Below are positions 1 to 15,180 of a DNA stretch of 52,575 bases, one piece after another. The position numbers and the translations under genes are program-made. The notes under the pieces are model-generated. The model worked only from the letters and a program-made list of their open reading frames with translations, searched no databases and was not told where the DNA came from. The number at the start of each line of letters is the position of its first letter. Within the stretch, counting starts at the first letter, position 1. Source of the DNA: Microbacteriaceae bacterium (lineage in GTDB: Bacteria; Actinomycetota; Actinomycetes; Actinomycetales; Microbacteriaceae); the NCBI GenBank assembly GCA_023254555.1, contig JALRLI010000001.1, forward strand, positions 1 through 52,575. The letters run 5' to 3'.

Positions 1-299
1 GTCGAGAACTTCTCAAATACTCGGATGGGGTCTTCGCTGCTCAAAACAGTGACCGCGCTCCCGAGCTGAATACGCTGAGTTTGTCCGGCAATTGCCGCCA
101 GAAGAATTTCGGGAGCAGAGATCGCGAAGTCATTGCGATGGTGTTCACCCAAACCGATGAAGTCTATTCCGAGTTGGTCGGCGAGTACGGCTTGATCAAC
201 TACATTGCGAAGTACCTGGGCGTCGCTGAGACGCTCACCATCGGCGCCAATTGTGACATCGCCGAAGGTGTCTAACCCTAATTCCACAGTGCTTGTCAT
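1..299 (-). CDS. LLM-class (luciferase-like) flavin-dependent oxidoreductase; N-terminal part only, the gene continues past the left edge
   Basis: Own reverse-strand translation from ATG (complement of 297-299): MTSTVELGLDTFGDVTIGADGERLSDAQVLRNVVDQAVLADQLGIDFIGLGEHHRNDFAISAPEILLAAIAGQTQRIQLGSAVTVLSSEDPIRVFEKFST... This is a typical luciferase-like monooxygenase N-terminus. It is absent from the ORF track because it runs off the window. Confidence 0.7.
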   Translation of the reverse strand, partial: MTSTVELGLDTFGDVTIGADGERLSDAQVLRNVVDQAVLADQLGIDFIGLGEHHRNDFAISAPEILLAAIAGQTQRIQLGSAVTVLSSEDPIRVFEKFS

Positions 300-368
300 C
301 GATCTTCCTTTCCACCAACGCCCAGCCTAATCTGAGCAAGTTGAGCGTGAGCTGTTAGGCTGACGGCG

Positions 369-1109
369 ATGATTTCAGATCCTGCAGCATTGGTCGCAGA
401 GCTCGGTGACCCTACTACGTCTGGGCAGCGGCTGACAGAAATCGCTGGCTCCTTTCCAGAGTACGGCCCGATGGTGGCCGAGCATCCGGCAGCGTCTGTT
501 GAGGTTCTGGCATATTTACTGAAACACGGAAACGAAGCCACGCGCAAAGCGGCAGCCCGGCGAAGAGCCCGAGATGTTGCCCTCATTGCCAGCGGTCAAG
601 CGCCCCGTACTGATACGACTGTCTCCACTGAAGTACTGCGCGAATCGGCGGGCCTCGATACTCCATCGGCACCCATTACGCAATCACTCGATAGTGCAGC
701 GGTGACCGGTGGATTTCGTAAAGCTCCACAGCTTGACGACGAAGTTGATCAGACAGTGATCTCAACACGTACAGCGCGCACGACTGCTTGGTCGCTTGTG
801 GTGAACGGCGAAGTGGCACACACAATTACCGCAACCGAAGTGTTGCTGGGTCGCAAGCCCCAGGCTCATCCGGGGTACCCCGCTGCTGAGCCACTGGCTA
901 TTGAAGACACAACAAAGACTGTTTCGAAAACTCACGCTCGACTCATTCTCAGAGGCGAATCATGGATGATCGTCGATCTAGGCTCCACGAACGGCGTCAT
1001 TGTTGTTGACGCTGGGAAAGAGCAAAAAATCGCTCCTGGAGCAGAAACTGAAGTTGTGGCGGATTTCTTCCTCGGTGACCTGAAGATCAGGCTCGAACCA
1101 AATGCGTAG
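369..1109 (+). CDS. FHA-domain protein
   Basis: C-terminal FHA signature (VLLGRKP...TVSKTHARLILRGESWMIVDLGSTNGVIVV). The N-terminal helical region and linker are low complexity. Confidence 0.8.
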   Translation: MISDPAALVAELGDPTTSGQRLTEIAGSFPEYGPMVAEHPAASVEVLAYLLKHGNEATRKAAARRRARDVALIASGQAPRTDTTVSTEVLRESAGLDTPSAPITQSLDSAAVTGGFRKAPQLDDEVDQTVISTRTARTTAWSLVVNGEVAHTITATEVLLGRKPQAHPGYPAAEPLAIEDTTKTVSKTHARLILRGESWMIVDLGSTNGVIVVDAGKEQKIAPGAETEVVADFFLGDLKIRLEPNA

Positions 1110-1119
1110 TCTCAGGCGC

Positions 1120-1287
1120 CTACTTCTTGCCGAAGATGCGGGCAAAAAATCCTGGCTCTGGGGGATCGTTTTCATGGCCCTTGCACCGTTCTGACTGAGG
1201 AACACCCTTCATAACCTGGTTGACGTGCTGTCCACACCCTGCCCAGGTAGTCTTTCCGCATTTGCGGCACGTTACTTGACGGCACAT
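1120..1287 (-). CDS. Unannotated small cysteine-rich protein (55 aa), paralog of the 4078-4194 ORF
   Basis: Own translation: MCRQVTCRKCGKTTWAGCGQHVNQVMKGVPQSERCKGHENDPPEPGFFARIFGKK. AGGAG Shine-Dalgarno (complement of 1293-1297) lies 5 nt before the ATG. It shares the motif MC-x4-C-x2-CGK-x-TW-x-GCGQH...ERC with the second mini-ORF, and an operator-like palindrome lies 56 nt upstream. Confidence 0.55.
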   Translation of the reverse strand: MCRQVTCRKCGKTTWAGCGQHVNQVMKGVPQSERCKGHENDPPEPGFFARIFGKK

Positions 1288-1342
1288 GAGTTCTCCTGAT
1301 GTTCAAAGGTAGAGGGTTCGTTCAGACACCAAGCTATCACAG

Positions 1343-1358
1343 ATACCCTAGGGGGTAT
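1343..1358 (-). promoter_or_regulatory. CsoR/RicR/RcnR-type operator-like palindrome (ATACCCCCTAGGGTAT on the minus strand) in the putative promoter of the 55-aa ORF
   Basis: G/C tract flanked by an ATA/TAT inverted repeat. On the minus strand: CTGACA (-35-like), 3 nt, palindrome, with its last TAT starting a weak -10 (TATCTG). The 4023-4038 site has the same layout. Confidence 0.45.
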
Positions 1359-1367
1359 ATCTGTCAG

Positions 1368-1691
1368 CTACTTTTTCGCGGCGACAAAACCGAGAACGAC
1401 CGCGAGCAGGCCGATGAGTACCGGAATCACCCAGAAAACCCCGATCGCAAGAAGCGCTGCAACTGCGCCGGCCGCCAAAAGCAGCTCGACAAAAGCTTGA
1501 CCGAAGCGGTCTACAGCGAGAACCGGCTTCGGTGACAGGAACAAAGCCCAAATCACGACAGTGAAAAGGAGCATCCCTAAACCAATGAGTGCACCAGGCA
1601 GCGGCAGTTCAAAAGCGAGGAACCCCCAAGTGGCAATGCTGAGAACGAGGAGGAGATGAACCAACGAACGAAGTGCAACGAGAATACCCAC
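1368..1691 (-). CDS. Small integral membrane protein, YrdB/DUF2568-like
   Basis: 107 aa with about 4 hydrophobic helices (LLLVLSIATWGFLAF..., LIGLGMLLFTVVIWALFLSPKP...). The family name is from memory of similar actinobacterial proteins. Confidence 0.65.
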   Translation of the reverse strand: MGILVALRSLVHLLLVLSIATWGFLAFELPLPGALIGLGMLLFTVVIWALFLSPKPVLAVDRFGQAFVELLLAAGAVAALLAIGVFWVIPVLIGLLAVVLGFVAAKK

Positions 1692-1730
1692 GGCACCAGT
1701 CTAGCCAGCGATTACGGTGTTACTATTCTG

Positions 1731-1800
1731 TTGTCGTGACTGGCGTAAAGATGGACACCATCAGGGAGCGACGCTCAAATCAAGGTCGATCGCCTGGGCC
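1731..1800 (+). promoter_or_regulatory. ZTP (pfl-motif) riboswitch aptamer in the glyA-folD leader
   Basis: P1 5' strand GUCG is directly followed by the conserved GACUGGCG. P2 hairpin is GAUGG-ACA-CCAUC, then AGGGAG plus P1 3' strand CGAC, a linker, and the 3' subdomain GGUCGAUCGCCUGGGCC. That subdomain carries the near-invariant CGCCUGGGC, whose CGCC can form the pseudoknot with GGCG. The location upstream of glyA/folD is a classic ZTP context. Confidence 0.7.
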
Positions 1801-1852
1801 GCAAGCAACTGCCGCTGTCTAGCGCAGCGGCGGCAAACCTAGGGAGAAAACA

Positions 1853-3133
1853 GTGTCAGATCAGTCAACATTTAACGCCCCGCTTGCTGAAGTAGACCCC
1901 GAAATTGCAGCGGTACTCACGAACGAACTGGGACGCCAGCGTGACTACCTCGAAATGATCGCGAGCGAAAACTTCGTTCCACGTGCAATTCTTGAGGCGC
2001 AGGGTTCGGTGCTGACGAATAAGTACGCAGAAGGCTACCCAGGTCGTCGCTACTATGGCGGATGCGAATTCGTAGACGTTGCCGAGTCGCTCGCTATTGA
2101 GCGCGCAAAAGCCCTCTTCGGTGCCAAATTTGCGAATGTGCAGCCCCACTCAGGCGCGAGCGCAAATGCCGCAGTGCTCTCTGCTATTGCCGAGCCCGGT
2201 GACACTATTCTCGGCCTAGAACTCTCCCACGGCGGACACCTCACGCACGGCATGAAACTTAACTTCTCGGGAAAGCTCTATAACGCAGTCGCATACGGCG
2301 TCGATCCAGAGTCCTTCTTGGTTGATATGGATGTCGTGCGAAAGGCCGCGCACGAGCACAAGCCAAAGGTGCTGATTGCTGGCTGGTCGGCGTATCCCCG
2401 CCAGCTCGATTTCGCTGAGTTCCGCAAGATTGCAGACGAGGTTGGCGCAAAGCTTTGGGTAGACATGGCCCACTTCTCGGGTCTTGTTGCAGCTGGACTT
2501 CACCCTTCGCCGGTTCCGTATGCTGACGTGGTTTCGTCAACAGTGCACAAGACGCTCGACGGCCCCCGCTCGGGCTTCATCCTTACGAACGATGAGGAGC
2601 TCGCCAAGAAGCTGAACTCGAACGTTTTTCCTGGCCATCAGGGTGGTCCGCTGATGCATGTGATTGCTGCGAAAGCGGTCGCCTTCAAGCTCGCGGCATC
2701 AGAAGATTTCAAAGATCGGCAGCAGCGCACGCTTCGCGGCGCAACGCTTCTTGCAGATAGACTCACGGCCGCAGACTCACGTGCCGGCGGAGTGGATGTT
2801 CTGACCGGAGGGACAGACGTTCACCTCGTGCTCGCCGATCTTCGTAACTCAGAGCTCGACGGTAAGCAGGCTGAAGACGCACTGCACAGAGTAGGCATCA
2901 CGGTCAACAGAAATTCAGTGCCGTTCGACCCGCGTCCGCCGATGGTGACCTCCGGTCTCCGAATCGGAACTCCAGCGCTCGCAACCCGTGGCTTCGGTGA
3001 CTCAGAGTTCACCGAGGTCGCTGATGTCATCGCACAAGCGCTCCTCCCTGGCGCTGATTTCGATTCACTGGCAGCAAGGGTGAAGAAACTCACCCTTGAC
3101 TTCCCGCTCTACCCCGGCCTTGAGCAGTGGTAG
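1853..3133 (+). CDS. glyA: Serine hydroxymethyltransferase
   Basis: 426 aa, full-length SHMT-like sequence ([35 protein letters not shown]; PLP-lysine motif [14 protein letters not shown]). GTG start with GGGAG SD 6 nt upstream. Confidence 0.97.
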
Positions 3134-4011
3134 CCGCTCTTCTCGACGGTAACGTTGCCGCGGCGCAAATTAAACGTGAACTGTCTGAGCGTGTGATAGC
3201 ACTTCGTGCGAGAGGTATTACCCCTGGGTTGGCTACGGTGCTCGTGGGTGAAGATCCGGGATCGCAGTGGTACGTAGGCGGTAAACACAAGGATTGCGCC
3301 GAGGTTGGCATCGCTTCAATCCGGCGGGATTTACCCGAAGCGACGACCCAGCAGGAGCTCGAGGACGTGATTCACGAGCTGAATGAAAATGCGAGTTGCA
3401 CCGGCTACATCGTGCAGTTGCCACTGCCGAAGCACATTGATACGGATCGAATTCTTGGGCTGATTGACCCCAAGAAGGATGCTGATGGCTTGCATCCGAC
3501 AAATCTTGGCTGGCTCGTACTCAACGCGAACAGCGAAATTACGACTCCACTGCCTTGCACACCTCGAGGCGTGATTGAGCTCGTCGAACGAAACGGGATC
3601 AGTTGGGATGGCAAACACGTTGTCGTGATTGGTCGGGGAGTGACAGTCGGTAGACCAATTGGGCCGTTGCTCACGAGGCGTGAGTATAATGCAACCGTTA
3701 CGCTCACACACACCGGCACCAAGAACCTACCTGAGCTGCTTCGTCAGGCTGATGTGATTGTCGCCGCCGCAGGCGTTGCCTCAATCGTGAAGCCCGAAGA
3801 TGTGAAGGCAGGAGCGGTAGTACTCGACGTTGGGGTTTCGCGTGCGACCGACCCAGCGACTGGCAAGAGTAAAGTCGTTGGCGATGTCGATCCAGCCGTT
3901 GCCGAAGTGGCCTCCTGGATTTCGCCCAACCCCGGTGGAGTTGGGCCGATGACGAGAGCGCTTCTTCTCAAAAACGTGGTCGAAATGGCCGAAAACCAAG
4001 CCGCAGAGTAG
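3127..4011 (+). CDS. folD: Bifunctional methylenetetrahydrofolate dehydrogenase / methenyl-THF cyclohydrolase
   Basis: 294 aa with FolD hallmarks ([12 protein letters not shown]..., [31 protein letters not shown]). Overlaps glyA by 7 nt. Confidence 0.95.
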
Positions 4012-4022
4012 TTGCACTATAT

Positions 4023-4038
4023 ATACCCCTGGGGGTAT
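4023..4038 (+). promoter_or_regulatory. CsoR/RicR/RcnR-type operator-like palindrome (ATACCCCTGGGGGTAT) inside a sigma-70-like promoter
   Basis: 14 of 16 positions are palindromic. TTGCAC (4012-4017, -35), an 18-nt spacer containing the palindrome, then TATAGT (4036-4041, -10) whose TAT is the end of the palindrome. Confidence 0.5.
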
Positions 4039-4077
4039 AGTGTGGTTAGAATTTATTCACCAAACTAAGGAACAAAT

Positions 4078-4194
4078 ATGTGTTACGCAGTTCAATGCCC
4101 TAAGTGTGGAAAAGCAACCTGGGATGGTTGCGGTCAACACATTGAAGAAGCGCTTGCACCATACGCTGAAGAACAGCGTTGCAACTGCCGATAA
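4078..4194 (+). CDS. Unannotated small cysteine-rich protein (38 aa), paralog of the 1120-1287 ORF
   Basis: Own translation: MCYAVQCPKCGKATWDGCGQHIEEALAPYAEEQRCNCR. AAGGA SD lies 6 nt before the ATG, with a promoter plus operator upstream and a strong terminator downstream. The 146-aa track ORF 4040-4480 in another frame is rejected. Confidence 0.55.
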   Translation: MCYAVQCPKCGKATWDGCGQHIEEALAPYAEEQRCNCR

Positions 4195-4205
4195 AAACCT
4201 CAACG

Positions 4206-4240
4206 AAAAACGCTCAGACATCTCCCGTCTGAGCGTTTTT
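4206..4240. terminator. Bidirectional intrinsic terminator
   Basis: AAAAACGCTCAGAC - ATCTCCC - GTCTGAGCGTTTTT: a perfect 14-nt arm pairing that includes the A-tract and T-tract. It sits between the convergent mini-ORF (+) and ferredoxin gene (-). Confidence 0.75.
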
Positions 4241-4258
4241 CGTTCTTACATCCGCGCG

Positions 4259-4471
4259 TCAAGCGGGGCTTTCACGCTCGATGATGAGCAACGCTTTCTT
4301 CGGACACGCGCGCAACGCTTTTTTCGCCTGTTTCTTTGTGTTGTCGGTGAGCGGTGCAGATTCGATGATTGGGAATCCCCAGACATCCATCTGAATCAGG
4401 TCGGGCGCCTTGATTGCGCATATTCCGACGCCGTCGCATTTCGTGGGGTCAATAAGAAGGTGTTTGTTCAT
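4259..4471 (-). CDS. Small single-cluster ferredoxin, 3Fe-4S-type signature
   Basis: 70 aa with KCDGVGIC...ACP, i.e. C-x2-V-x2-C...CP (the middle Cys of CxxCxxC is replaced by Val). 4-nt overlap with the upstream gene. Confidence 0.75.
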   Translation of the reverse strand: MNKHLLIDPTKCDGVGICAIKAPDLIQMDVWGFPIIESAPLTDNTKKQAKKALRACPKKALLIIERESPA

Positions 4472-5730
4472 ACAGCATGAATTTCTGATTCGGTCGGAAA
4501 GAAAGGCTGAGTGGACGACGCACTACATTTGTTTTTTCGATGCAGCGAAATCTCAGACGCAAAAACCTCGAGGGCGGTGTTTGTCATCCGAACGACTCCG
4601 TCAGGATGTGAACACGCTCCTCGCTTCATGAGCTGGGGTAATCGGTCATTAAGGCGGTCTAACGCGCCTATGACCTTTCGACCCCCGGCCGCAAGTGCTT
4701 GAATATCTTCTGCCAGCCACTGTAAACCGAAAATGCACGGGCCACACTGTTGTGCAGACTGACTCGCCATCCACTCAACGATCCTTGACGTTTCGATGAG
4801 TCCACAGTGAGAATTTGGCAGGGGCGCAACAATGCCAGCACCTAGCGAGAGTCCCTGTCCGGCTAGGCTCGCTTCATGCACCCTACTGTGTGCGATGTCT
4901 TGCCAATTCACCCACTGGCCACCGTACCCGCCGAGTAACACGTGTTCTGCCGGATCGGAGGGTTCGAGCAATTCAGCAAACGTAGTGTCAGAACTCACCT
5001 CGCGCACGTATCTCCCATTCAGAGTGAGAAGCGTGACCAAGGTCGACTCGAGAGGCGCCCAGTTGAGGCTAGATGCCAGCAGTCCGATATGAGCCAAGGT
5101 TTCGGAGTTGAAGACCAAAACCGGGGCATTGCCTTCACCCCACGCCCGCGATTTTGTGGGGAAGAACTTCGGAACTGCTGACCCGCCCTGCACTGCGTTA
5201 ATAATTGCTGACGCCTCACCTGAGACGTATCGGTGCGGCGCTAAATACGCCCGTAAAGGGAGCCGATCTATTTCTGCAGCAGCTCGCTCTTTGAACGCTC
5301 CGGCCATAGAGGATCGGGTTGAGTAGGAATCTTCGTGCACCCAGACTCCAAGCGATTTCGCTTGTGTCAGAGCACCCACGGCTGCCAACCCGCGTAGCAC
5401 CAGGTGGGGATTGGTCTGCCAGAGAGCGGCATCCTTCGCAGCGGAAGGTTCGCCTTCGGCGGCATTTGCGATGACCGTTCCACCCGCACCAGCCAAAATT
5501 GCTGAACGAATTTTGACCGCTGATGGAAAGTGAGCCCCACCTCTACCGTGAACGCCCGCTTGTTCAATCCTCGAGAGCAGGGCCTCCAGATCAGCGTTAT
5601 TTTCGAGAGGTATGGATGAGCCGAATCGAGCCTCAAATTCAGTGAGATCAAAGCGCCGCGATCCCGTCGGAAAGAGTGAATTTCCAACGTCATACCTAAT
5701 CTCGTTTGCTGGCAGCAGGGTGAGAGTCAA
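4468..5730 (-). CDS. NuoF-like NAD(P)H-binding FMN / iron-sulfur protein
   Basis: 420 aa. GRGGAHFP (NuoF has GRGGAGFP), VIANAAEGEPSAAKDAALWQTNPH (NuoF has NADEGEPGTFKD), and a C-terminal NuoF-type Fe-S region with an altered motif QSAQQCGPCIFG...GACSHPDG. Confidence 0.8.
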   Translation of the reverse strand: MTLTLLPANEIRYDVGNSLFPTGSRRFDLTEFEARFGSSIPLENNADLEALLSRIEQAGVHGRGGAHFPSAVKIRSAILAGAGGTVIANAAEGEPSAAKDAALWQTNPHLVLRGLAAVGALTQAKSLGVWVHEDSYSTRSSMAGAFKERAAAEIDRLPLRAYLAPHRYVSGEASAIINAVQGGSAVPKFFPTKSRAWGEGNAPVLVFNSETLAHIGLLASSLNWAPLESTLVTLLTLNGRYVREVSSDTTFAELLEPSDPAEHVLLGGYGGQWVNWQDIAHSRVHEASLAGQGLSLGAGIVAPLPNSHCGLIETSRIVEWMASQSAQQCGPCIFGLQWLAEDIQALAAGGRKVIGALDRLNDRLPQLMKRGACSHPDGVVRMTNTALEVFASEISLHRKNKCSASSTQPFFPTESEIHAV

Positions 5731-6440
5731 CGCGATTCCTCAATGATTCGAGGCTTGGTGTCACGAACGTACTCTTTGCGTTTGCGCCTGATCGAAGGTT
5801 TTCGGTAGCGCCAGATGGCCAAAATGAACACGAAAACTCCAGCGATCACGTAACCGAAGAATAGTGCGTCGGTGTCAGAGCCTGTCAGCATGCCATGGCC
5901 AAATGCCATAACGAAGAACAAAAGAGATATTCGATGGAGCCAGAGCCAGCTTCTTCTGAAGATTGCGCTGTTTGCAAGAGACGCAGTTACAGCGACAAGG
6001 AGCATCCCATAAAAAGAGAGCACTCCGAAGGTGACCGGGATTCGCTCCCAATTTGATGCCATCGGAATCAGTGCGCCCGCCCATCCCACATCAACAAACT
6101 GGTCTAGTGCGAGTGAAACCAGGTGCACGATTGTGATCAGAATGGCGAACACAGAAAAACCAATGTGAAGCCGAAGCCGGGTGACAAACTGCATCCAGGT
6201 CCAGCCATGGCTGTTTGGATGGGACACTAAGAGGCCGAGCACGGATGCAGCCCAAAGCATGATCAACGCCGTTATTCCTGATGAGCGGCCAAGAATCCAA
6301 ACAAAGGTGTCTGCCTGAGAGGCTTGAGCGACACTGAGCGCTACGAGGATGACGGATGTGGCAAAGACGAGACCCAGGAGTAACGAAGAGACCACTGCTC
6401 GGGTGCTCACAGCCTGATCAGTGTTCATGGTTTCATCCAA
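5727..6440 (-). CDS. Stand-alone ferric-reductase-domain (FRD, NOX/FRE-type) di-heme membrane protein
   Basis: 237 aa, about 6 TM helices. LHIGFSVFAILITIVH (H-x13-H) and LHRISLLFFVMAFGH (H-x12-H) match the canonical bis-heme histidine spacing of the NOX/FRE family. There is no fused FAD/NAD domain. Confidence 0.8.
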   Translation of the reverse strand: MDETMNTDQAVSTRAVVSSLLLGLVFATSVILVALSVAQASQADTFVWILGRSSGITALIMLWAASVLGLLVSHPNSHGWTWMQFVTRLRLHIGFSVFAILITIVHLVSLALDQFVDVGWAGALIPMASNWERIPVTFGVLSFYGMLLVAVTASLANSAIFRRSWLWLHRISLLFFVMAFGHGMLTGSDTDALFFGYVIAGVFVFILAIWRYRKPSIRRKRKEYVRDTKPRIIEESR

Positions 6441-7390
6441 ATAAGGTGTTGCTTCATCGAGTCGCTGTAGCCGATTTCACCCTGGGTTGTGACCCAGAGG
6501 GCTGCAATTTGATCGCCATTGCATGTTTCGAGTATTGATGACTCGCCCTCGATGAACAGCGTTTTGGTCAGCGTTTCAGCGACATTGGTGTTCTTGTGCA
6601 CCACTGTCACGGCAGCAAGTCCTGAGTTTGCTGGTCTACCCGTCTTGGGGTTGACGAGGTGGTGGACATCATCCCCATGTTGTGTTTTCCACCTGCGTTT
6701 ACGAACGCTCGAAGTAGCCAGTCCGGTATCCGAAATTTCTAATACTGCTAAAGGGTCGGCTTCGGAACTGTCGAAGGGATTTTCGACCCCAATTCGCCAA
6801 GCTGTCCCTTCCGGGCTATGGCCCCAGGCCTGGAGGTCGCCGCCAGCATTCACAAACCCCGAGGGAGCCGATTCACGAAGCGAGGCGCTCAGCAGGTCGA
6901 CGGCAAGACCTTTCCCAATGCCTCCAAGATCAATAGGTGCGCCAGAAAGATTGATTTTGTAGCTTGATCCGACGTGCTCGAATTGGGGGCGCCAAGATTC
7001 CATTTCGGTGTGGGTGCTTGGCAGGCTGCCACGCGGCGAGGAGCCTGTCTCGAATGAATCCGCGTAGCCGATTTCTTTGAGCGTGCTGATTACCCTCGGG
7101 TCGAAAAGGCCGTTTGAGCGCTCGAACGCATCTGCCGCAACCTTCACTGCTTCGAAAAGTAGCGCTGGAACTTCTACGCTCTCATTCGGTGAGTTATTGA
7201 GTTGAGCGAGGGGATTATCAGGGATAAACCTCGAGCAGGTTTGCTCGAACTCAGCCAGAAATGGCTCGACTGTTTCATTCACAATCTTCTCGAACTCCGT
7301 TGCAGAAACCGATAACGAAATCTCGACGTCAGAGTTCATACTCCGAATGAGCCCCGAACTGTAGGTCAGGGCTGACTTACTCTCAGACAT
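6425..7390 (-). CDS. apbE: FAD:protein FMN transferase (ApbE family), no recognisable signal peptide
   Basis: 321 aa with ApbE-like layout (SRFIPDNPLAQLN, GLFDPRV, PIDLGGIGKGLAVD, VNAGGDL). The N-terminus starts directly in the catalytic domain. There is no upstream in-frame start before the next stop. Confidence 0.85.
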   Translation of the reverse strand: MSESKSALTYSSGLIRSMNSDVEISLSVSATEFEKIVNETVEPFLAEFEQTCSRFIPDNPLAQLNNSPNESVEVPALLFEAVKVAADAFERSNGLFDPRVISTLKEIGYADSFETGSSPRGSLPSTHTEMESWRPQFEHVGSSYKINLSGAPIDLGGIGKGLAVDLLSASLRESAPSGFVNAGGDLQAWGHSPEGTAWRIGVENPFDSSEADPLAVLEISDTGLATSSVRKRRWKTQHGDDVHHLVNPKTGRPANSGLAAVTVVHKNTNVAETLTKTLFIEGESSILETCNGDQIAALWVTTQGEIGYSDSMKQHLIWMKP

Positions 7391-7394
7391 TGGC

Positions 7395-7817
7395 CTATGA
7401 AGCGCCGGTGTTTGTATTGGTGGACGGTGCGGGTGCGGGTGCGGGTGCGGGTGCCGGTGCTTGCTGTGTAGCAGAGCCAGTCGACGCAGACGAAGATCCG
7501 CTCCAGCTCGCTGAGCCGCTGCTGGCTGAGCCCCCTACCAGTGCTGCAGTGGCCTCCTCCATAGCCTTGATCTGACTGGTCAGGTCTGAGAGTTTGGTTT
7601 CGAGAGCGGTGATGGTCAGCTTATTCGCATTGATTTGCGCTTGCTCCGCGCTCGAAAACTGACTCGATTCTGCGGCTGCACTGTCCGAAGCGGTCGCTAG
7701 CGGGTCGTTATTTAAGGCCCAGCTCGTGGCGACGCCAAAGGTGCCGACCGCGATGGGCAACGCAACAAGAGCGGGCAACCAACGAAGCGCTTTCGAGGAG
7801 TCACGCTTAGTCGTCAT
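7395..7817 (-). CDS. Membrane-anchored coiled-coil protein with Ser/Gly-rich and (AP)n regions (paralog B)
   Basis: MTTKRDSSKALRWLPALVALPIAVGTFGVATSW (TM anchor), a heptad-like segment (QAQINANKLTITALETKLSDLTSQIKAMEEATAAL), an S/G-rich segment, (AP)6, ending STNTNTGAS. GAGGAG SD 7 nt before the ATG at 7817. Identical SD+ATG copies at 7838 and 7859 leave the start ambiguous. The 262-aa track ORF is trimmed. Confidence 0.55.
   Translation of the reverse strand: MTTKRDSSKALRWLPALVALPIAVGTFGVATSWALNNDPLATASDSAAAESSQFSSAEQAQINANKLTITALETKLSDLTSQIKAMEEATAALVGGSASSGSASWSGSSSASTGSATQQAPAPAPAPAPAPSTNTNTGAS
7426..7461. repeat. Hexanucleotide tandem repeat (GGTGCG)4 plus 2 variant units, encoding (AP)n of paralog B
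   Basis: Read directly: ggtgcg ggtgcg ggtgcg ggtgcg ggtgcc ggtgct. Confidence 0.9.
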
Positions 7818-8238
7818 CGTCGCGCTCCTCGTGATCATCGTCGCGCTCCTCGTGATCATCGTCATGTTCTTCGTGGTTATCGTCATCGTAGGATTGTGCA
7901 GGCGCTGGGGCCGGTGCTGGGGCAGGTGCGGCGGACGTGCCACCGGTAGCGCCAGCACCTGTCTGCGACCCTCCAGTGGAGACCGATCCCGATGAGGTTG
8001 AGCCTGAGTTGAGTGCCGCAATCGCCGCATCGTAGTTTGCTTGCGCCGCGGCGAGAGCGGCTTCTGCTTCAAGAATCTGTTGCTGTAACGAAGCAATTGC
8101 AGTGGTTTGTTCGCTGATAACCGTCTCGGCAACCTCTTTTGAGTCTGCTTCGGTAACTGCGAATGCAGCGACCCCCATACCACTCACAGCGGTGAGTGCT
8201 GCAGCACCGCTAATGATGATCTTAGTTGTGGTCTTCAT
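7807..8238 (-). CDS. Membrane-anchored coiled-coil protein with (AP)n and an acidic His-rich heptad tail (paralog A)
   Basis: 143 aa. MKTTTKIIISGAAALTAVSGMGVAAFAV (signal/anchor), a coiled-coil-like segment (IASLQQQILEAEAALAAAQANYDAAIAAL), S/G/T-rich, APAPAPAPAPA, and the tail QSYDDDNHEEHDDDHEERDDDHEERDDDD. Strong GGAGG SD 8 nt upstream. Confidence 0.7.
   Translation of the reverse strand: MKTTTKIIISGAAALTAVSGMGVAAFAVTEADSKEVAETVISEQTTAIASLQQQILEAEAALAAAQANYDAAIAALNSGSTSSGSVSTGGSQTGAGATGGTSAAPAPAPAPAPAQSYDDDNHEEHDDDHEERDDDHEERDDDD
7815..7877. repeat. 21-nt tandem repeat (2 perfect copies plus 1 degenerate) encoding HEERDDD heptads
   Basis: catcgtcgcgctcctcgtgat x2 (7815-7835, 7836-7856), then catcgtcatgttcttcgtggt. 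Each copy also carries an SD+ATG in the frame of paralog B. Confidence 0.85.
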
Positions 8239-8325
8239 GTTTTTCGCCTCCGATGTTCACTCTATGGAGGGAAGCTATGAAACGGCTGTGGAAGCGACGC
8301 CCGACACGTGGGGCGCATCCAGCCA

Positions 8326-9039
8326 CTATATTCCGGTTCCGCCGCCTATCAGCGCACCAATTCCCCAGGTGACTGCGAGTGCAAGGGCACCACCTATCGT
8401 CACGCGAATAATCGGTTTCAACATTGGGCTTCGACCCAGATAGGCGCCAAGGCCACCAGTGATTGCCAATGCCACGAGCGAGGCGATGACAGTGATTAGG
8501 ATTCTGACTTCTGCCGGAGAGAAGATTATGGCGAGCATCGGCAATACAGCACCCGCTAAGAAGGAAATTGCCGAGCTTATTGCTGCGTGCCAGGGGTTAG
8601 TGAGCTCTTCTTCTTTGATGCCCAATTCTGCCTCGAGGTGGGCTTTTATCGGGTCGATCGCTGTGAGCTCTTCGGCCACTTTCTGCGCCGTTGGCTCACT
8701 CAATCCTTTTTGTATATATATTTCTGCGAGTTCCTGCAGCTCAATTTCGGGCTGGCTCTGAAGTTCTAACTTCTCGCGTGCGATGAGTGCGGCTTCGCTG
8801 TCGCGCTGGCTGCTCACCGAAACATATTCGCCCAGTGCCATCGAGATTGAACCGGCCAGCACACCTGCGATGCCGGCAATCAGAATCGGAGTCACCTCTT
8901 GGGTAGCCGCGGCCACACCAACCAACAAAGCTGCGATTGACACAATTCCATCGTTTGCGCCGAGAACACCTGCACGAAGCCAATTCAATCTGGCAGCGAA
9001 TTGGGTGCGATGGGGTTCTGTGGGATTGACTGTGCTCAT
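8326..9039 (-). CDS. VIT1/CCC1-family Fe/Mn transporter
   Basis: 237 aa. LNWLRAGVLGANDGIVSIAALLVGVAAA, a central cytoplasmic helical domain rich in E (metal-binding domain), and C-terminal TM helices. Confidence 0.85.
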   Translation of the reverse strand: MSTVNPTEPHRTQFAARLNWLRAGVLGANDGIVSIAALLVGVAAATQEVTPILIAGIAGVLAGSISMALGEYVSVSSQRDSEAALIAREKLELQSQPEIELQELAEIYIQKGLSEPTAQKVAEELTAIDPIKAHLEAELGIKEEELTNPWHAAISSAISFLAGAVLPMLAIIFSPAEVRILITVIASLVALAITGGLGAYLGRSPMLKPIIRVTIGGALALAVTWGIGALIGGGTGI

Positions 9040-9108
9040 CTCTCCATCCTATGTATTTGAAAGGATGCGCTTGCACTTGCGCACCGAGTTGAACACACTT
9101 GAACAGAT

Positions 9109-10653
9109 ATGGCTACTCCCTCAGCACAGAACGTCACAGTACCCACCGAAGCGGGCTTTGTGCGTGGGGTTTCTGACGGCGTCACCACTCGCTGGCTGGG
9201 TGTGCCTTACGCTACGGCTCCAACCGGCGTGAAGCGATACACCTCGGCGCTGCCCGTTACGCATTGGGAGGGAACTCGTAACACCGCAATGTTCGGACCG
9301 AGCAGTTGGCAGCCTCGTACTCCGATGATTCGGCTACCCTCGCAGCACACGTTTTCGGAGCAGTGTCTGAATCTCAATATTTGGTCACCGGCAGACCGCG
9401 AGTCTGCGGAGCAGCTACCGGTGATGGTCTGGATTCACGGAGGGGCTTCGGTGATTGGTTCCTCTGCGCAGCCTGTTTATAACGGCACTGTGCTCAGTTC
9501 TGAGGGTAGAGCAGTTGTCGTGACGCTCAACTATCGCCTCGGCGTTCTTGGGGCTCTGAACTTCTCGCATCTGAATACGAAGACTCAAGCGTTCGAAAGC
9601 AATTTGGGGCTGAAAGACATCGTGACTGCGCTGGGATGGGTTCAGCGCAACATCACTTATTTCGGCGGCGACGCAGATCGTGTCACCCTGTTTGGCGAAT
9701 CTGCAGGCGCAGCGGCTATTACGTCGCTCATGACTGCGCCGCAAGCTCGAGACTTGTTTCACCGTGCAATCGTGCAAAGTGCGCCGGCTACAAGCGTCTA
9801 CGGGCAAGAACGCTCGACCCAAATTGCTGATGCGTATCTGCACCTCATGGACGTCAACCCTTCAGACGCGGCCCAGCTTCTGCTTGACTCCCCAGCAGAG
9901 TCTCTGGCCGAGTCCGCGATGCGGCTGATTTATTCAATTGCAGAGGCGGAGCCGGGGAGCCTCGCCTACGCGCCCGTCGTGGATGGTGATTTTTTACCCG
10001 ATTACCCGGTCGATGTCTTTCGGCGAGGCGAGCAAATGCGAATCCCCATGATTATTGGCACGAATCAGAATGAAGCAGCACTCTTCAAGCAGCTCAAATC
10101 ACCGGTGATGCCGGTAACCGCTGACGCCGTGAATCACATGCTCGAGAATATCTCGGCTGAAGGTTACGCGTCTGCCAACGCGATTTCGAGGGTTCGTGCA
10201 GCATATCCCGAGTTTCCAGCCGAGCGAGCGGCAATGCAAATATCAACGGACGCGGGCATCAGAATGCCGGCGGTCTGGCTGGCAAGCGCGCATTCGGCTG
10301 TGGCGGCAACGTATATGTACCGATTCGACCACTCAACACCAGTGCTGAAGGCCTTGGGCTACGGTGCCGCGCATGCAACAGAGCTCCCTTACGTGTTTGG
10401 CACAATCGATACGGTGCGGCGCTTGCCGGGGGCCGGTCTCATATGGCTCGGCGGTTTGAGCCAAGCGCGCGACGTGTCTCGTGAAATCAGACGCCGTTGG
10501 CTGAAATTTGCTGATGGTGACCTGAAGGATTGGCCCGCCTACGATACTGAGAAACGGTCAACGCAAATATTTGACAGGGGGGTCAGCAGCGTGAGCGATC
10601 CGGGAGCGACCACCAGAAACGCTTGGGGAGATGCCCCTATCAGTTTCCGTTGA
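9109..10653 (+). CDS. Type-B carboxylesterase/lipase
   Basis: 514 aa. VMVWIHGGA oxyanion region and the nucleophile elbow FGESAGAA. Confidence 0.9.
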   Translation: MATPSAQNVTVPTEAGFVRGVSDGVTTRWLGVPYATAPTGVKRYTSALPVTHWEGTRNTAMFGPSSWQPRTPMIRLPSQHTFSEQCLNLNIWSPADRESAEQLPVMVWIHGGASVIGSSAQPVYNGTVLSSEGRAVVVTLNYRLGVLGALNFSHLNTKTQAFESNLGLKDIVTALGWVQRNITYFGGDADRVTLFGESAGAAAITSLMTAPQARDLFHRAIVQSAPATSVYGQERSTQIADAYLHLMDVNPSDAAQLLLDSPAESLAESAMRLIYSIAEAEPGSLAYAPVVDGDFLPDYPVDVFRRGEQMRIPMIIGTNQNEAALFKQLKSPVMPVTADAVNHMLENISAEGYASANAISRVRAAYPEFPAERAAMQISTDAGIRMPAVWLASAHSAVAATYMYRFDHSTPVLKALGYGAAHATELPYVFGTIDTVRRLPGAGLIWLGGLSQARDVSREIRRRWLKFADGDLKDWPAYDTEKRSTQIFDRGVSSVSDPGATTRNAWGDAPISFR

Positions 10654-10665
10654 TATTCTCATTCC

Positions 10666-11277
10666 GTGAACGTTGAAACAATGCACCCCACCAAAGAGCG
10701 TCTGATTCAGACGGTATCCGCGATGCTTGACGCAGATGTTCAGCACGATGTCATTCTTGAGGATGTTCTCAATACCTCTGGTATCTCGCGAGGGTCGCTC
10801 TATCACCACTTCAGCGACTTCCCTGATCTCATCGAGCAGACTCTGTTGGTTCGTTTCTCGCACGGCGTGGATGAGACCACACAGTTGACGCGTGACATCG
10901 CGAACAAGGCGAAGACTGCTGACGAATTTTGGACGGGGATCGGCGAACTTATTGTGTACTCGCAGAGTCCGCTGAGAGCCAGAAGAAGGCAGGAACGCAC
11001 TCGCATTATCGGGCTCGCAGCAACAAGCGAGCGTCTCGCGAAAGCGCTCGCAGCTGAACAAGAGCGACTCACTGTTGAGATGACTGAAATCTACGCCGAG
11101 GTGCAAGCGAACGGCTGGGCTCGGCACGACCTTGATCCAAGAACTATTGCGGTGTTTACCCAGGCATACACTCTTGGTCGGGTAGTCGACGATATCTCTG
11201 AAGAGCATGTCAATTCAGGCGACTGGGACAAGCTGCTCAACATCGTTCTGAATACCTTCAAAAGCAACGCGACGTAG
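10666..11277 (+). CDS. TetR-family transcriptional regulator
   Basis: N-terminal HTH (LEDVLNTSGISRGSLYHHFSDFPDL). 203 aa. Confidence 0.85.
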   Translation: MNVETMHPTKERLIQTVSAMLDADVQHDVILEDVLNTSGISRGSLYHHFSDFPDLIEQTLLVRFSHGVDETTQLTRDIANKAKTADEFWTGIGELIVYSQSPLRARRRQERTRIIGLAATSERLAKALAAEQERLTVEMTEIYAEVQANGWARHDLDPRTIAVFTQAYTLGRVVDDISEEHVNSGDWDKLLNIVLNTFKSNAT

Positions 11278-11312
11278 TCCGCGAATTCTCGCGAAAGTTT
11301 TTCACTGAGGAG

Positions 11313-11385
11313 TGGGCCCGGTGGGACTCGAACCCACGACCCGCGGATTAAAAGTCCGATGCTCTACCAACTGAGCTACAGGCCC
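11313..11385 (-). tRNA. tRNA-Lys (anticodon UUU)
   Basis: Reverse complement GGGCCTGTAGCTCAGTTGGTAGAGCATCGGACTTTTAATCCGCGGGTCGTGGGTTCGAGTCCCACCGGGCCCA folds as a cloverleaf. Anticodon loop CT-TTT-AA, T-loop GGTTCGAGTCC. CCA is not encoded. Confidence 0.9.
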
Positions 11386-11489
11386 GATGCCAACAAAAAG
11401 CGGCCACCGGGTGACCGTTCTTGTACGTGAAAGTCTAGCAGGGCTAGCAGGGCGTAAATTACAGCGCGTCATCGAACACGGTCAGCACG

Positions 11490-12122
11490 ATGGGCTATCG
11501 TGAACGCATGAAACCCGTGCTCCGCGCATCCGCCCATTTCGAATGGGTGCAGGGTTCTGACGACCCTGAAGTGGCGCATCGCTTAGCGCACGACACAGCT
11601 TGGGCGTTGCTTGACCGAGTCAGGCATGTTGCTGATTCGCGGCTCGTTGAGCGGGTCATTTCGGTTGCGGATACAGATGCTATCGATGACATTGCTGAGC
11701 TGTGGGTTGACGCTTCTGAGCAGTCGCTGGCTGGCATGTTGTGGAGGCTCTACCTGATTCGTCAGGTCGTGCGCACGCACCCCGAAGAAACCACGACGCT
11801 GTTTCGTGCCGGATTCGAGCATGCGAAGTCGATCGATCCTGTTGTCGTCGGACTCGCCGCTCCTGCGCAACCTGAGAGTATGCGTGCGCTGACTGATGAG
11901 ATTCTGCGCGGGGTGTTCTCTGCAGATCTCGCCGACGCGCTCGAACGGGCATCCGCGTTCTGTAATTTGATGAGCCTAGGATGCGCAGCTGAAGCCGACA
12001 GTCGCGAAAACTTTGATTCATCTCACGCCACTGAGCTCACGACGCGGGCCCTCCGCTACTCGATGTTCGCAAACGAACTCGGCGCGGGTGCGCGGCTTTG
12101 GCGGGCTGGCAGGCTGCACTAG
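11490..12122 (+). CDS. Conserved hypothetical protein
   Basis: 210-aa ORF with coding-like composition. No motif that I recognise. Confidence 0.55.
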   Translation: MGYRERMKPVLRASAHFEWVQGSDDPEVAHRLAHDTAWALLDRVRHVADSRLVERVISVADTDAIDDIAELWVDASEQSLAGMLWRLYLIRQVVRTHPEETTTLFRAGFEHAKSIDPVVVGLAAPAQPESMRALTDEILRGVFSADLADALERASAFCNLMSLGCAAEADSRENFDSSHATELTTRALRYSMFANELGAGARLWRAGRLH

Positions 12123-12321
12123 TACACTGGATTCGCCTGGCCACAGTAACCCCGGGCTCCAAAATTTGCCGCTTCGAGCGGACCTTCGCCGAGAGGCGTT
12201 CTGTGGCCGGGCATTATTCTTTTTCGCGAAAGCAGCCGTTAACCTTCTGTTTAGATTTGCATCGTTTACTTAGGTTGACTCAGTTGAGTTTAGGTAAGAA
12301 AACCGTCGGCCCCGGCTGACA

Positions 12322-13287
12322 ATGAAAAGGAAGAAACACACAGTGTCTATTCGTACGTTCACAGCTTTCAGCGCAACCGCTGGAGCTGTATCTCTCGCTC
12401 TTCTGCTCTCCGCCTGTGGTGGTCAGCAGGCTCCTTCCGGTGAAGGACTCTCGGGCAGCGTAGCTGTCGACGGTTCGTCAACGGTTGCCCCTCTCGCTGA
12501 GGCAGCCGCAGGCCTCTACGCAGAGGTTGAACCTGAGGTTCAGGTGACCGTGGGCACTTCAGGAACCGGTGGCGGCTTCGAGAAGTTCTGTGCAGCCGAG
12601 ACTGATATCTCGACCGCATCACGCGAAATCAAAGATGAAGAAGCAGCTAAGTGTGCCGAGGCTGGTGTTGAGTTCACCGAAATCCTCATCGCTAATGATG
12701 GGCTTTCAGTCATCGTGAACCCAGAAAATACCTGGGCTAAAGACCTGACTGTTGCTCAGCTCGCTACCATCTGGGCTCCCGCGGCTGAGGGCAAGGTCAT
12801 GAGCTGGAAGGATGTTGATCCTTCATTCCCAGATGTGAAGATTGAGGCATTCGGCCCAGGTACTGATTCGGGAACATTCGACTTCTTTACCAAGGCAATC
12901 AATGGCGAAGAGGGTGCAAGCCGAACCGACTACAGCGCTTCAGAAGACGACAACGTCATCGTTCAGGGTGTTGCAGGAGCTAAGGGTGGCATCGGATACC
13001 TCGGCCTGAGCTACGCAGAACTGAATGCTCAGCAGGTGAAACTTGTTTCTGTGGATGGTGTGATGCCTTCGATCGAGACCGTTCAGGATGGAACGTACAC
13101 TCCCCTTGGTCGACCACTCTTCATCTACGTAAACAACGCGAATTTTACTGACAACAAGGCCGTCAAGGGCTTCGTTGAGTACTTCGTCGACAACGCCGAG
13201 TTGGCGGCTGAGGATGCACTCCTCGTTGGTCTGACAGCAGAACAGCTTCAGATTGCAAAAGACGAGCTCGCAGCTCTCGAGAAGTAA
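12322..13287 (+). CDS. pstS: Phosphate ABC transporter substrate-binding lipoprotein
   Basis: Lipobox LLLSACGG, VDGSSTVAPL, and a PstS-like sequence throughout. An alternative GTG start at 12343 has a better SD (AAGGAAG). Confidence 0.92.
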   Translation: MKRKKHTVSIRTFTAFSATAGAVSLALLLSACGGQQAPSGEGLSGSVAVDGSSTVAPLAEAAAGLYAEVEPEVQVTVGTSGTGGGFEKFCAAETDISTASREIKDEEAAKCAEAGVEFTEILIANDGLSVIVNPENTWAKDLTVAQLATIWAPAAEGKVMSWKDVDPSFPDVKIEAFGPGTDSGTFDFFTKAINGEEGASRTDYSASEDDNVIVQGVAGAKGGIGYLGLSYAELNAQQVKLVSVDGVMPSIETVQDGTYTPLGRPLFIYVNNANFTDNKAVKGFVEYFVDNAELAAEDALLVGLTAEQLQIAKDELAALEK

Positions 13288-13312
13288 ATAACTACTAGGT
13301 AGTCTTACTTAC

Positions 13313-14266: not shown

Positions 14267-15180
14267 TGGCGTTCTCTAACATGAGTCTCGGCGGTCAGAT
14301 TCAGAAGGCGAGCTTGAAAGGTCGCGTTCGTGGGAGCGAGTCGAGCGCAAAATCAATTACCTTCCTCATTCTGCTGTGGCTCGGCTTGCTCATCGCGTTC
14401 TCGGTGCTCTTGGTTTTGATTGTCACCACGTTGCTTGACGGTTATACCCGTCTTGATGCACGGATTTTTACGAATTACCCTTCCGCCAACCCTGAAAAAG
14501 CTGGATTACGTCCGGCAATTTTGGGTTCGCTCTGGGTTATCGGCACGGTGGCGGTGCTTACCATTCCGCTTGGCGTCGCTGCGGCACTGCACTTGGAAGA
14601 GTTTGCGAACAAGCACAACCGATTCAACCGGTTCATCGAGCTGAACGTTCAGAACCTCGCGGCTGTGCCTTCGATCGTTTACGGTCTACTGGCGCTGGGA
14701 ACACTCACGCTCATCGGTGTGAAAGAGAAGAACATCGTTCTTGGTGGCGCTGTTGCACTTAGCATGCTGGTGCTCCCTGTGATTGTAATTTCTACGAGGG
14801 AAGCTCTGCGTGCCGTTCCAATGGAGATCCGTCAGGGTTCTCTGGCCTTGGGTGCAACACCCCTCCAGACTGCCTTCCGTCAAACTCTCCCATCAGCAGT
14901 GCCTGGTATCGCGACGGGCTCAATTTTGGCGCTCTCGCGTGCACTGGGTGAGGCCGCTCCGCTCCTCGTACTCGGCGCTCTCGTATTCGTTCGATTCGAC
15001 CCCAACGGGCTGCTCAGTGGGTACACGACCATGCCCATCCAAATCTTCAACTGGACGTCTAGGCCCCAACCTGAGTTTCACGTTCTCGCCGCTGCCGCAA
15101 GCATTGTCTTGCTCGCCATTCTTATCGCAATGAATGCAGTGGCAATCATCATTCGTAACCGTTACCAGCGTCGCTGGTAA
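14266..15180 (+). CDS. pstA: Phosphate ABC transporter permease
   Basis: 304 aa. [28 protein letters not shown] overlap with pstC. Confidence 0.92.

Follow-up and report, generated by a model that had tools for sequence, protein, structure and literature searches.

How could a membrane heme protein without a dehydrogenase domain of its own receive electrons from the cytoplasm and pass them outward, and what would a flavin transferase have to do with it? The question is raised by a group of minus-strand genes in the DNA studied here, a 52.6-kb stretch (52,575 nt) from a Microbacteriaceae bacterium, referred to as the window. The initial annotation had described four of these genes as a split system resembling the NADPH oxidases (NOX), coding for an ApbE flavin transferase, a membrane protein of the ferric reductase domain (FRD) type, a NuoF-like protein and a ferredoxin. 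This proposal is supported, but it was incomplete: two small upstream genes, s1 and s2, had been missed, and ApbE had been given no role. With these included, we lean towards an operon that moves electrons from cytoplasmic NADH to the exterior of the membrane through the NuoF-like protein, the ferredoxin, the two hemes of the FRD protein and a flavin carried by s2.

In Gram-positive bacteria, iron acquisition, extracellular respiration and envelope redox repair are all based on outward electron transfer. To our knowledge, the actinobacterial systems that perform it are uncharacterised. With at least 583 matches among species-representative genomes, the module is widespread and represents a large blind spot.

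Operon organization and data set

Open reading frames (ORFs), gene junctions and motifs were read directly from the sequence of the window. Listed from the last gene to the first, the genes and the candidate site are:

Ferredoxin gene (fdx): 4259..4471, minus strand; ORF of 70 aa, Pfam Fer4_15.
NuoF-like protein gene (nuoF'): 4468..5730, minus strand; 420 aa, Complex1_51K and NADH_4Fe-4S, that is, an FMN/NADH-binding part and a C-terminal Fe-S helical domain.
FRD protein gene (frd): 5727..6428, minus strand; 233 aa with the likely ATG start, 237 aa with an alternative TTG start at 6440.
apbE: 6425..7390, minus strand; 321 aa, FAD:protein FMN transferase family.
s2: 7395..7817, minus strand; 140 aa, no Pfam family, directly upstream of apbE.
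Candidate flavinylation site N-T-N-T-G-A-S: 7398..7418, minus strand; last seven residues of s2.
s1: 7807..8238, minus strand; 143 aa, no Pfam family.

The genes s1-s2-apbE-frd-nuoF'-fdx appear to form a six-gene operon. The four ORFs of the initial annotation are present and translationally coupled as described, with the junctions ccATGAac (apbE/frd), cgTTGAct (frd/nuoF') and gtATGAac (nuoF'/fdx). Of the overlaps given there as 16, 4 and 4 nt, the 4-nt pair stands; the 16-nt overlap with apbE holds only for the TTG start at 6440, and the ATG at 6428 produces a third 4-nt overlap. This ATG start, and the 233-aa protein it yields, agrees with the orthologues P0001 and P0002 and with the called genes of locus L001. 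Further upstream, the s2 start overlaps the s1 end by 11 nt, and the s2 stop lies 4 nt ahead of the apbE ATG.

Relatives of the NuoF-like protein (NuoF') were obtained by a pattern scan of one genome per species, in which at least 583 stretches were confirmed. Counts for distant loci refer to the best 80 loci found in this way, in which the partner genes were searched with the window proteins; counts out of 83 add three close relatives to these 80 genome loci.

The predicted membrane heme protein

The initial annotation had identified the FRD protein by six transmembrane segments and by two histidine pairs with the spacings H-x13-H and H-x12-H, and this identification has held. The four histidines, H92-x13-H106 and H169-x12-H182, are 97-100% conserved among 77 species-level loci. 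In the AlphaFold2 model (pLDDT 78), six long helices are formed, and the histidine pairs lie in helices 3 (91-112) and 5 (162-187). The top Foldseek matches of this model in the PDB are 5o0t (the NOX5 transmembrane domain, probability 0.99), 6wxr and 7d3e (DUOX1, 0.99) and 8ucd (STEAP1, 0.94). The predicted FRD assignment is supported by the conserved histidines, the model and the fold search, despite a Pfam score below threshold. The other domain calls are borne out by profile searches directly, with ApbE, Complex1_51K, NADH_4Fe-4S and Fer4_15 all recovered above their gathering thresholds.

The FRD relatives P0006, P0009 and P0137 do pass the threshold of Pfam Ferric_reduct (PF01794). When the subfamily profile was searched against 1.84 billion cluster representatives, 5873 of them were matched at E ≤ 1e-3 and 694 at E ≤ 1e-30; hence the 12 matches of a word-indexed search understate the family. 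In some members of the subfamily, such as P0242 and P0190, about 150 residues are inserted after the first hydrophobic helix and ahead of the FRD core. They are predicted to form an extracytoplasmic domain, which has no Pfam match and could be a built-in electron acceptor.

With NOX5, CsNOX, DUOX and the yeast FRE proteins, the FRD protein shares the six-helix fold and, in helices 3 and 5, the bis-histidine pairs with spacings of 13 and 12, and the outward transfer from a cytoplasmic pyridine nucleotide proposed here is also theirs. Unlike them, it has no fused FAD/NADPH dehydrogenase domain: neither FAD_binding_8 nor NAD_binding_6 was matched in the Pfam search of the protein, whose chain stops about 25 residues past helix 6. 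Given that the dehydrogenase domain is missing, the protein is not a NOX proper. In its place, the donor would be a separate complex-I-type flavoprotein with a ferredoxin, and the operon also includes an apbE gene and small exported proteins, which the NOX and FRE systems do not.

The proposed donor side: NuoF-like protein and ferredoxin

The NuoF-like protein matches Pfam Complex1_51K (E = 5.7e-26) and NADH_4Fe-4S (E = 3.1e-12), both above the cut-offs, and the motifs quoted for it in the initial annotation, namely GRGGAHFP, NAAEGEPSAAKD, QQCGPCIFG, SHCG and GACSHPDG, are present. The NuoF' family profile aligns with residues 41-420 of Thermus thermophilus Nqo1 (2fug chain 1), nearly its full length, at E = 5e-53. 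In comparison with Nqo1, the glycine-rich FMN loop GRGGA.FP and the segments N-A-x-E-G-E-P...KD and G-E-x-S-A are kept. The cluster motif had been slightly misread, given that the first cysteine of CxxCxxC is lost (ESCGKCTPC of Nqo1 corresponds to QSAQQCGPC, with SC changed to SA) and that a cysteine further upstream, C309, is nearly invariant. The second, third and fourth ligands (C329, C332 and C373) are invariant, and C309 could be the substitute ligand. The pattern C-x2-C-x2-C ... C of the N3 ligands of complex I is absent.

Against the NuoF equivalog TIGR01959 the protein scores 98 bits, where the cut-off is 558.65, and neither nuoE nor nuoG was found adjacent in the window, L001, L084, L085 or L086. 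Since the cluster ligands are changed, NuoE is missing and the score is far below the equivalog cut-off, the protein is referred to as NuoF-like and not as NuoF.

The protein also matches RnfC models at E-values of about 1e-13 to 1e-14, below their thresholds. The Rnf complex is similar in that a Complex1_51K-type NADH/FMN protein (RnfC) feeds a membrane complex that depends on ApbE flavinylation (of RnfG and RnfD). It differs in that no homologues of RnfA, B, D, E or G are found among the neighbouring genes, no ion-pumping architecture is present, and the membrane wire would be a putative di-heme FRD protein instead of the Rnf/Nqr core.

The 70-aa ferredoxin, initially described as of the 3Fe-4S type with the motif C-x2-V-x2-C...CP, was confirmed by Pfam Fer4_15 (42.5 bits against a cut-off of 22.4, E = 1e-10). 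Its motif reads C12-DGVGI-C18 ... C56-P. Given that the three cysteines C12, C18 and C56 are kept in 78 loci and that the residue at the fourth-ligand position varies among them (it is Val in the window), the sequence indicates a single-cluster ferredoxin of the [3Fe-4S] type. The nearest solved structures are the Pyrococcus furiosus ferredoxin and the Mycobacterium tuberculosis ferredoxin 8amp; the latter also occurs as a fusion with CYP143, in 8amq.

From this anatomy we infer that the NuoF-like protein and the ferredoxin replace the FNR-like module of other FRD systems, as the initial annotation had proposed.

Co-conservation and the alternatives of protein repair and oxygen reduction

The four genes occur together in most of the 80 species-level loci, so that their co-conservation, on which the earlier proposal depended, is observed: of the 80, 77 have an adjacent FRD gene, 78 a ferredoxin gene and 68 apbE. 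The order is ApbE-FRD-NuoF'-Fdx on one strand, with ApbE placed after fdx in a few loci. As the same order recurs across the phylum, the arrangement is more than chance. The loci are mostly from Actinomycetota, including Nanopelagicales, Acidimicrobiia, Solirubrobacterales, Streptosporangiaceae, Streptomyces, Nocardia and Cellulomonas; a few come from metagenome-assembled genomes assigned to Chloroflexi, Dormiibacterota, Acidobacteria and Verrucomicrobia.

This linkage bears on a role resembling that of MsrQ, the nearest bacterial FRD paradigm cited by Méheust et al. (PMC8238504), whose name also appears among the relatives, some of which are labelled by JGI as YedYZ/MsrQ heme-binding subunit. 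In such a role, the FRD protein would be supplied with electrons by the menaquinol pool or a flavin reductase in order to repair or reduce an extracytoplasmic protein, and the NuoF-like protein and the ferredoxin would have another cytoplasmic function or be an alternative donor. We regard this as quite improbable, given that frd, nuoF' and fdx are joined by 4-nt overlaps and stay together in >95% of loci, and that among the loci with listed genes none has a molybdopterin (MsrP-like) gene called within the operon or beside it. The Escherichia coli MsrPQ system with Fre is similar in having a stand-alone bacterial FRD-family heme protein and a separate soluble cytoplasmic flavoprotein donor, as proposed here. 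It differs from the present operon in that the latter has no MsrP-type molybdoenzyme, its donor is NuoF-like, with Fe-S and a ferredoxin, instead of Fre-type, and ApbE is present.

A second alternative is a true NADPH-oxidase analogue, in which the outer heme or a tethered flavin would reduce O2 to superoxide or H2O2, with a role in signalling, antagonism or envelope redox homeostasis. The best fold matches of the FRD model are to NOX5 and DUOX1, the histidine spacings of 13 and 12 are those of NOX, and an OmpR-type response regulator with a HAMP/HisKA histidine kinase, which would exert control, is adjacent on either side, within about 4 kb, in about 56/83 loci. In the window, by contrast, no two-component system adjoins the operon; the window and its close relatives have a gene for a VIT1-family iron transporter instead, which together with the Asp/His-rich tail of s1 points to metals here, and no sequence feature singles out O2 as the acceptor. 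Hence we consider oxygen reduction improbable. As to the identity of the two-component systems of the other loci, no NCBIfam equivalog was reached at its cut-off; the best candidates, CseB, MtrA and heavy-metal types, were all below threshold.

The upstream proteins s1 and s2

In every locus for which called genes are available, one or two small genes without a Pfam family lie directly upstream of apbE. In comparison with the L001 orthologues, s1 shows 31 synonymous-only against 19 nonsynonymous codon differences and s2 shows 35 against 21. Since synonymous-only changes outnumber nonsynonymous ones, as they do in the four enzyme genes, s1 and s2 are taken to be real genes. The same comparison disposed of a 262-aa ORF (7395-8183, minus strand) that ends with s2: only its last 140 codons (s2, from the ATG at 7817) are coding, and its upstream part is not genic because it is an out-of-frame read of the repetitive Asp/His tail of s1.

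The s1 protein consists of a signal peptide (MKTTTKIIISGAAALTAVSGMGVAAFA), a helical Ala/Gln-rich segment, a low-complexity Ser/Gly/Pro/Ala linker and an Asp/His/Glu-rich C-terminal tail (…DDDNHEEHDDDHEERDDDHEERDDDD). The composition of this tail (7807-7890 in the window) suggests a putative role in extracytoplasmic metal binding. S1-like ORFs are found at 5595-6005 in L084, 5417-5923 in L085 and 5394-5855 in L086, where the Asp/His/Glu tail reads DDDHDDDDHDDHDDHDDHDGDDDHDGDDDD. In L084 and L015, a TGAS motif stands ahead of the acidic tail of s1; because of this motif, s1 may be a paralogue of s2.

The s2 protein begins with a basic region, which is followed by one hydrophobic and one amphipathic helix; a disordered Ser/Pro/Ala linker then leads to NTNTGAS and the stop. 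AlphaFold2 predicts helices at residues 10-36 and 56-94 (pLDDT 85-93, the second one amphipathic) and disorder over residues 95-140. A sequence search with s2 matched only two near-identical proteins, both nameless and without a Pfam family, and outside the tail no sequence conservation is seen across distant taxa. Judged from these comparisons, the s2 family is recognisable by position, architecture and tail alone. The s2 gene is found upstream of apbE in divergent taxa, and it stays beside frd even where apbE is not adjacent. The s2 gene of L085 (about 5930-6320, plus strand; ending ...PPPVDTSTGASG and then the stop) had been missed by the source annotation, and low-complexity genes of the s1/s2 type are probably under-annotated in general.

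The s2 tail as a candidate flavinylation site

ApbE transferases recognise the motif D-x-x-[S/T]-G-A-[S/T] and attach FMN to its last residue; seven-residue tags suffice, and terminal positions work best (PMC12052999). The s2 tail, NTNTGAS, is a near-match with N in place of D, and replacing the motif aspartate has been found to have only a minor effect on flavinylation by ApbE (PMC12052999, PMC9400968). It is the sole [DN]xx[ST]GA[ST] in six-frame segments of at least 80 aa of the window.

The feature recurs. Among 69 assessable loci, 40 have a small ORF ending just before apbE/frd with [ST]G[AG][ST] in its last eight residues, against a background of 23/4951 other ORFs (0.46%), and the serine is the very last residue in 29 of those 40. 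Examples are …VQATTGAS* in Paractinoplanes (L084), …NSSTGAS* in L086 and …VDTSTGASG* in L085.

Other candidate sites were tried and rejected. Within the FRD protein, NuoF' and the ferredoxin, no conserved Ser/Thr in a [ST]GA[ST] context was found (77-80 loci): the strings 'RSSG' (FRD helix 2) and 'LGAG' (NuoF') are both ancestral, the former as the R-x-x-G motif of FRD proteins and the latter as a NuoF feature. The sequences 'TGAGAT' in s1 and 'TGSAT' in s2 are not kept even in the 85-86%-identical L001 orthologues.

The identity of the transferase itself, as initially annotated, is supported by Pfam (ApbE, E = 9.4e-52). Solved FMN transferases match it at E-values of about 1e-20, the nearest being 5mgy (E = 3e-20), and GGD, ATS and HH..DP.TG.P, its catalytic and Mg-site motifs, are retained across 68 loci. 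The window ApbE has neither a signal peptide nor a lipobox; its first 17 residues are polar, and there is no room for a longer ORF on the upstream side. In 43/71 loci, the N-terminus could be lengthened by no more than 30 residues, with no hydrophobic segment among them, and in the remaining loci, with over-extended ApbE ORFs, the residues immediately ahead of the domain look polar on inspection. By these features, ApbE is predicted to be cytosolic and free of a signal peptide throughout the subfamily. Two database 'fusions', P0183 (ApbE-FRD) and P0282 (1369 aa; s1-s2-ApbE-FRD-NuoF'), were not used as Rosetta-stone evidence, nor to fix the topology of ApbE, because they contain out-of-frame stretches (e.g., HHLARPTHG in place of HH..DP.TG, or an s2 tail with the sequence ...VRHLDRG), which suggest frameshifted assemblies or gene-calling artefacts.

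The s2 tail, in contrast, is predicted to lie outside, because the basic flank precedes the hydrophobic segment. In 41 s2 proteins, the mean net charge of the flank is +3.3 before this segment and +0.27 after it, and the former exceeds the latter in 39/41. Hence s2 should be an N-in, C-out anchor or carry a cleaved signal peptide, with an extracytoplasmic tail in both cases. Three ways around this mismatch of compartments are considered: s2 would be flavinylated before export, the cytosolic ApbE would have another target, or the predicted topology of s2 would be wrong.

Our tentative preference, held with considerable reservation, is for the first, in which the tail would be flavinylated in the cytoplasm and the disordered chain then exported. 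It is preferred because no other protein of the operon has the motif and because cytosolic ApbE modifies engineered terminal tags, as has been observed in E. coli (PMC9400968). A C-terminal site would be the last part of s2 to leave the cell. Export through the Tat pathway would reconcile a cytosolic ApbE with an exported substrate; RR is present in the N-terminal region of some relatives, and the window s2 has only KR followed by polar residues.

In its most specific form, which we consider possible but doubtful, the proposal is that s2 is a natural 'flavin tag': FMN would be esterified to the last serine by cytosolic ApbE before or during Sec export, and this membrane-tethered flavin, on a flexible leash of at least 45 residues, would take electrons from the outer heme and pass them to acceptors, e.g., metals on the s1 tail. 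The engineered Flavin-tag (Tong et al. 2021/2022; PMC9400968, PMC12052999) likewise combines a short unstructured terminal [S/T]-G-A-[S/T] peptide with a cytoplasmic, signal-peptide-less ApbE. The engineered tag is an artificial construct, whereas the s2 tag would be natural and would lie at the C-terminus of an exported protein, and its tail often has Gly at position -1.

The second way corresponds to a different reading of the operon, in which the wire from NuoF' through the ferredoxin to the di-heme FRD protein is the same, s2 is not a substrate, and the cytosolic ApbE serves a cytoplasmic component. It would make the FMN of the NuoF-like protein covalent, or act as an FAD pyrophosphatase or flavin-delivery protein; s1 and s2 would be envelope accessory proteins, perhaps FRD partners like p22phox or DUOXA, and the tail would be used otherwise. 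The lack of a signal peptide across the ApbE family, the predicted outside location of the s2 tail and the prevalence of SGGS over SGA[ST] among the tails agree with this reading, as do known cytosolic ApbEs with cytosolic targets (PMC12052999) and the FAD pyrophosphatases among ApbE-family proteins (PMC4767422). Yet the NuoF-like protein, the FRD protein and the ferredoxin have neither D-x-x-[ST]-G-A-[ST] nor a newly conserved Ser/Thr, the tail, which adjoins apbE, alone is conserved in s2 while the rest of the protein is not, and the transferase catalytic histidine motif is conserved in ApbE. These points make the reading unlikely.

Proposed route and evidence against it

In the route via the s2 flavin, the NuoF-like protein would oxidise NAD(P)H at a non-covalent FMN and release single electrons to its Fe-S cluster, whose variant ligands would be C309, C329, C332 and C373. 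The electrons would go on to the small [3Fe-4S]-type ferredoxin, and either the ferredoxin or the NuoF-like protein would dock at the cytoplasmic face of the FRD protein. They would cross the membrane through two putative b-type hemes, the inner one bound by H92/H169 and the outer one by H106/H182. The first acceptor outside would be the FMN esterified by ApbE to the C-terminal serine of s2. Since the last ~45 residues of s2 are predicted to be disordered, this flavin would sit on a flexible leash above the outer heme, with s2 either membrane-tethered or secreted, and reduce the terminal acceptor. In the lineage of the window, the acceptor would be a metal ion, most plausibly Fe(III), to which both the Asp/His-rich s1 tail and the VIT1 gene nearby point.

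Several observations weigh against this route. On the membrane side, the FRD protein does not reach the gathering threshold of Ferric_reduct (PF01794; 16.2 bits, E = 0.011, cut-off 28), and its fold matches have weak E-values (0.05-0.4) and modest TM-scores (0.41-0.47). On the donor side, no NuoE-like partner is found; moreover, the ferredoxin is net basic, as is the C-terminal tail of the FRD protein when read from the sequence, so that no simple charge complementarity between them is evident.

On the acceptor side, only 13/40 tails are of the [ST]GAS type, with the canonical Ala at -1, and 27/40 have Gly at -1, mostly as SGGS; other loci end in TTSGQS*, TTKAS* or, in Acidimicrobiia, C-Y-T-T-P-S-G-x3-C-x*. 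With ApbE predicted in the cytosol and the s2 tail outside, flavinylation of s2 would have to precede export, and we know of no precedent for that order. Counterparts of s1 with acidic tails are present in a minority of loci (L084, L085, L086 and about 10 further loci), and VIT1, in the same position in L001-L003, is near the module in only 1/80 distant loci. The VIT1 association is specific to the lineage of the window. Given that VIT1 and the acidic s1 tail are rare elsewhere, metal reduction may not hold family-wide, and the acceptor may differ.

The Acidimicrobiia tail, C-[YH]-T-[TS]-[PA]-S-G-x3-C-x-stop, was observed on s2-like proteins of eight loci (L026, L027, L036, L037, L045, L055, L059 and L070). 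Where SG[AG]S is found in other loci, its two cysteines could thus provide a disulfide, or a redox or modification site of another sort.

Comparison with the MsrQ-like class

The closest published description is that of Méheust et al. 2021 (eLife, PMC8238504), a bioinformatic survey reporting 1797 'MsrQ-like' clusters, mostly actinobacterial, of which 31 have a NuoF-like PF10589 gene and 153 have VIT1 (PF01988). These clusters were proposed to export electrons driven by NAD(P)H, from cytosolic NAD(P)H through hemes to an extracytosolic flavin (PMC8238504). A follow-up paper (PMC11334425) models MsrQ-like proteins and does not treat the present variant. The initial annotation had presented the system as a candidate for an undescribed one. 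Full-text literature searches found no experimental study of the operon, which agrees with that suggestion as far as function is concerned; the existence of MsrQ-like clusters with a NuoF-like gene, on the other hand, was already on record in those 31 cases.

The present operon resembles this class in that apbE stands together with the gene of a membrane protein of the PF01794 type, a putative di-heme protein here, in that most cases are from Actinobacteria, and in the logic proposed; the optional NuoF-like PF10589 and VIT1 PF01988 neighbours are both present in the window. It differs from the typical cluster, in which the substrate has an FMN_bind domain and an NAD-binding domain of the FNR type is fused; neither is found here. 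By the operational definition of the class the operon falls outside, given that PF01794 is below threshold, ApbE has no signal peptide and there is no FMN_bind gene, and the filters of that survey would have removed it. A C-terminal peptide tail on a disordered protein as the substrate, the candidate here, is not described for the class. Judged by sequence, the operon would function like a NOX or MsrQ wire without being a member of NOX proper, NuoF or the MsrQ-like class of Méheust et al., and a type of arrangement not seen before may lie in the pairing of a cytosolic ApbE with a disordered exported protein whose conserved C-terminal tail resembles a flavinylation site.

That survey dropped ApbE and FMN_bind genes without a signal peptide or lipidation site (PMC8238504). 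Given this signal-peptide filter and an FRD protein below the Pfam threshold, the survey probably missed most of the module, and failure of the subfamily at both filters probably explains the low count of 31. The same survey noted 'orphan apbE genomes', which imply unidentified ApbE substrates (PMC8238504); if the proposed route is correct, some of these genomes would be explained. A NOX heme wire would then be drivable by a complex-I-type flavoprotein with a ferredoxin, and a minimal terminal peptide would be a natural ApbE substrate, a new class beside folded domains. The order of events, flavinylation and then export, would also be new and would avoid the need for FAD export, and a new kind of extracytoplasmic electron shuttle would exist across Actinomycetota.

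Genomic context

The features flanking the operon are:

Intrinsic terminator: 4202..4244, minus strand; 19-pair stem followed by a T-run, directly after fdx.
Promoter-like site CTGATA-16-TATAGT: 8325..8352, minus strand; upstream of s1, consensus match.
VIT1-family iron transporter gene: 8326..9039, minus strand; Pfam VIT1, E = 1.5e-67.

The hairpin with its T-run appears to close the operon. The promoter-like site is a consensus match only, as the number of such sites equals the number expected from shuffles. The VIT1 gene lies upstream of s1 on the same strand, at a distance of 87 nt, and is probably a separate transcript. In an Rfam scan of positions 1-14000, nothing was found within the operon. 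In L086, a relative with 57% NuoF' identity, a bacteriorhodopsin-family gene (2475-3284, minus strand) lies ~3 kb from the operon and is probably a mere marker of an aquatic actinobacterial lineage.

Elsewhere in the window, a ZMP/ZTP riboswitch (1726-1806, plus strand; Rfam RF01750, 53 bits where the gathering score is 39) stands just upstream of a serine hydroxymethyltransferase gene (1853-3133) and a folD-type gene (3127-4011), which is the usual folate-stress arrangement. The remaining context is that of an ordinary actinobacterial chromosome, with genes for an LRV_2 and FHA protein (369-1109, plus strand), a carboxylesterase (9109-10653, plus strand), a PGA_cap protein (16076-17278, plus strand), a polyphosphate kinase (18226-20316, minus strand) and a PdtaS-type histidine kinase (32919-34415, plus strand). 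Two tRNA genes were located on the minus strand, tRNA-Lys(UUU) at 11312-11385 and tRNA-Arg(CCG) at 46938-47011, and a pstSCA-like phosphate ABC transporter was placed at ~12322-15180 by synteny with L002.

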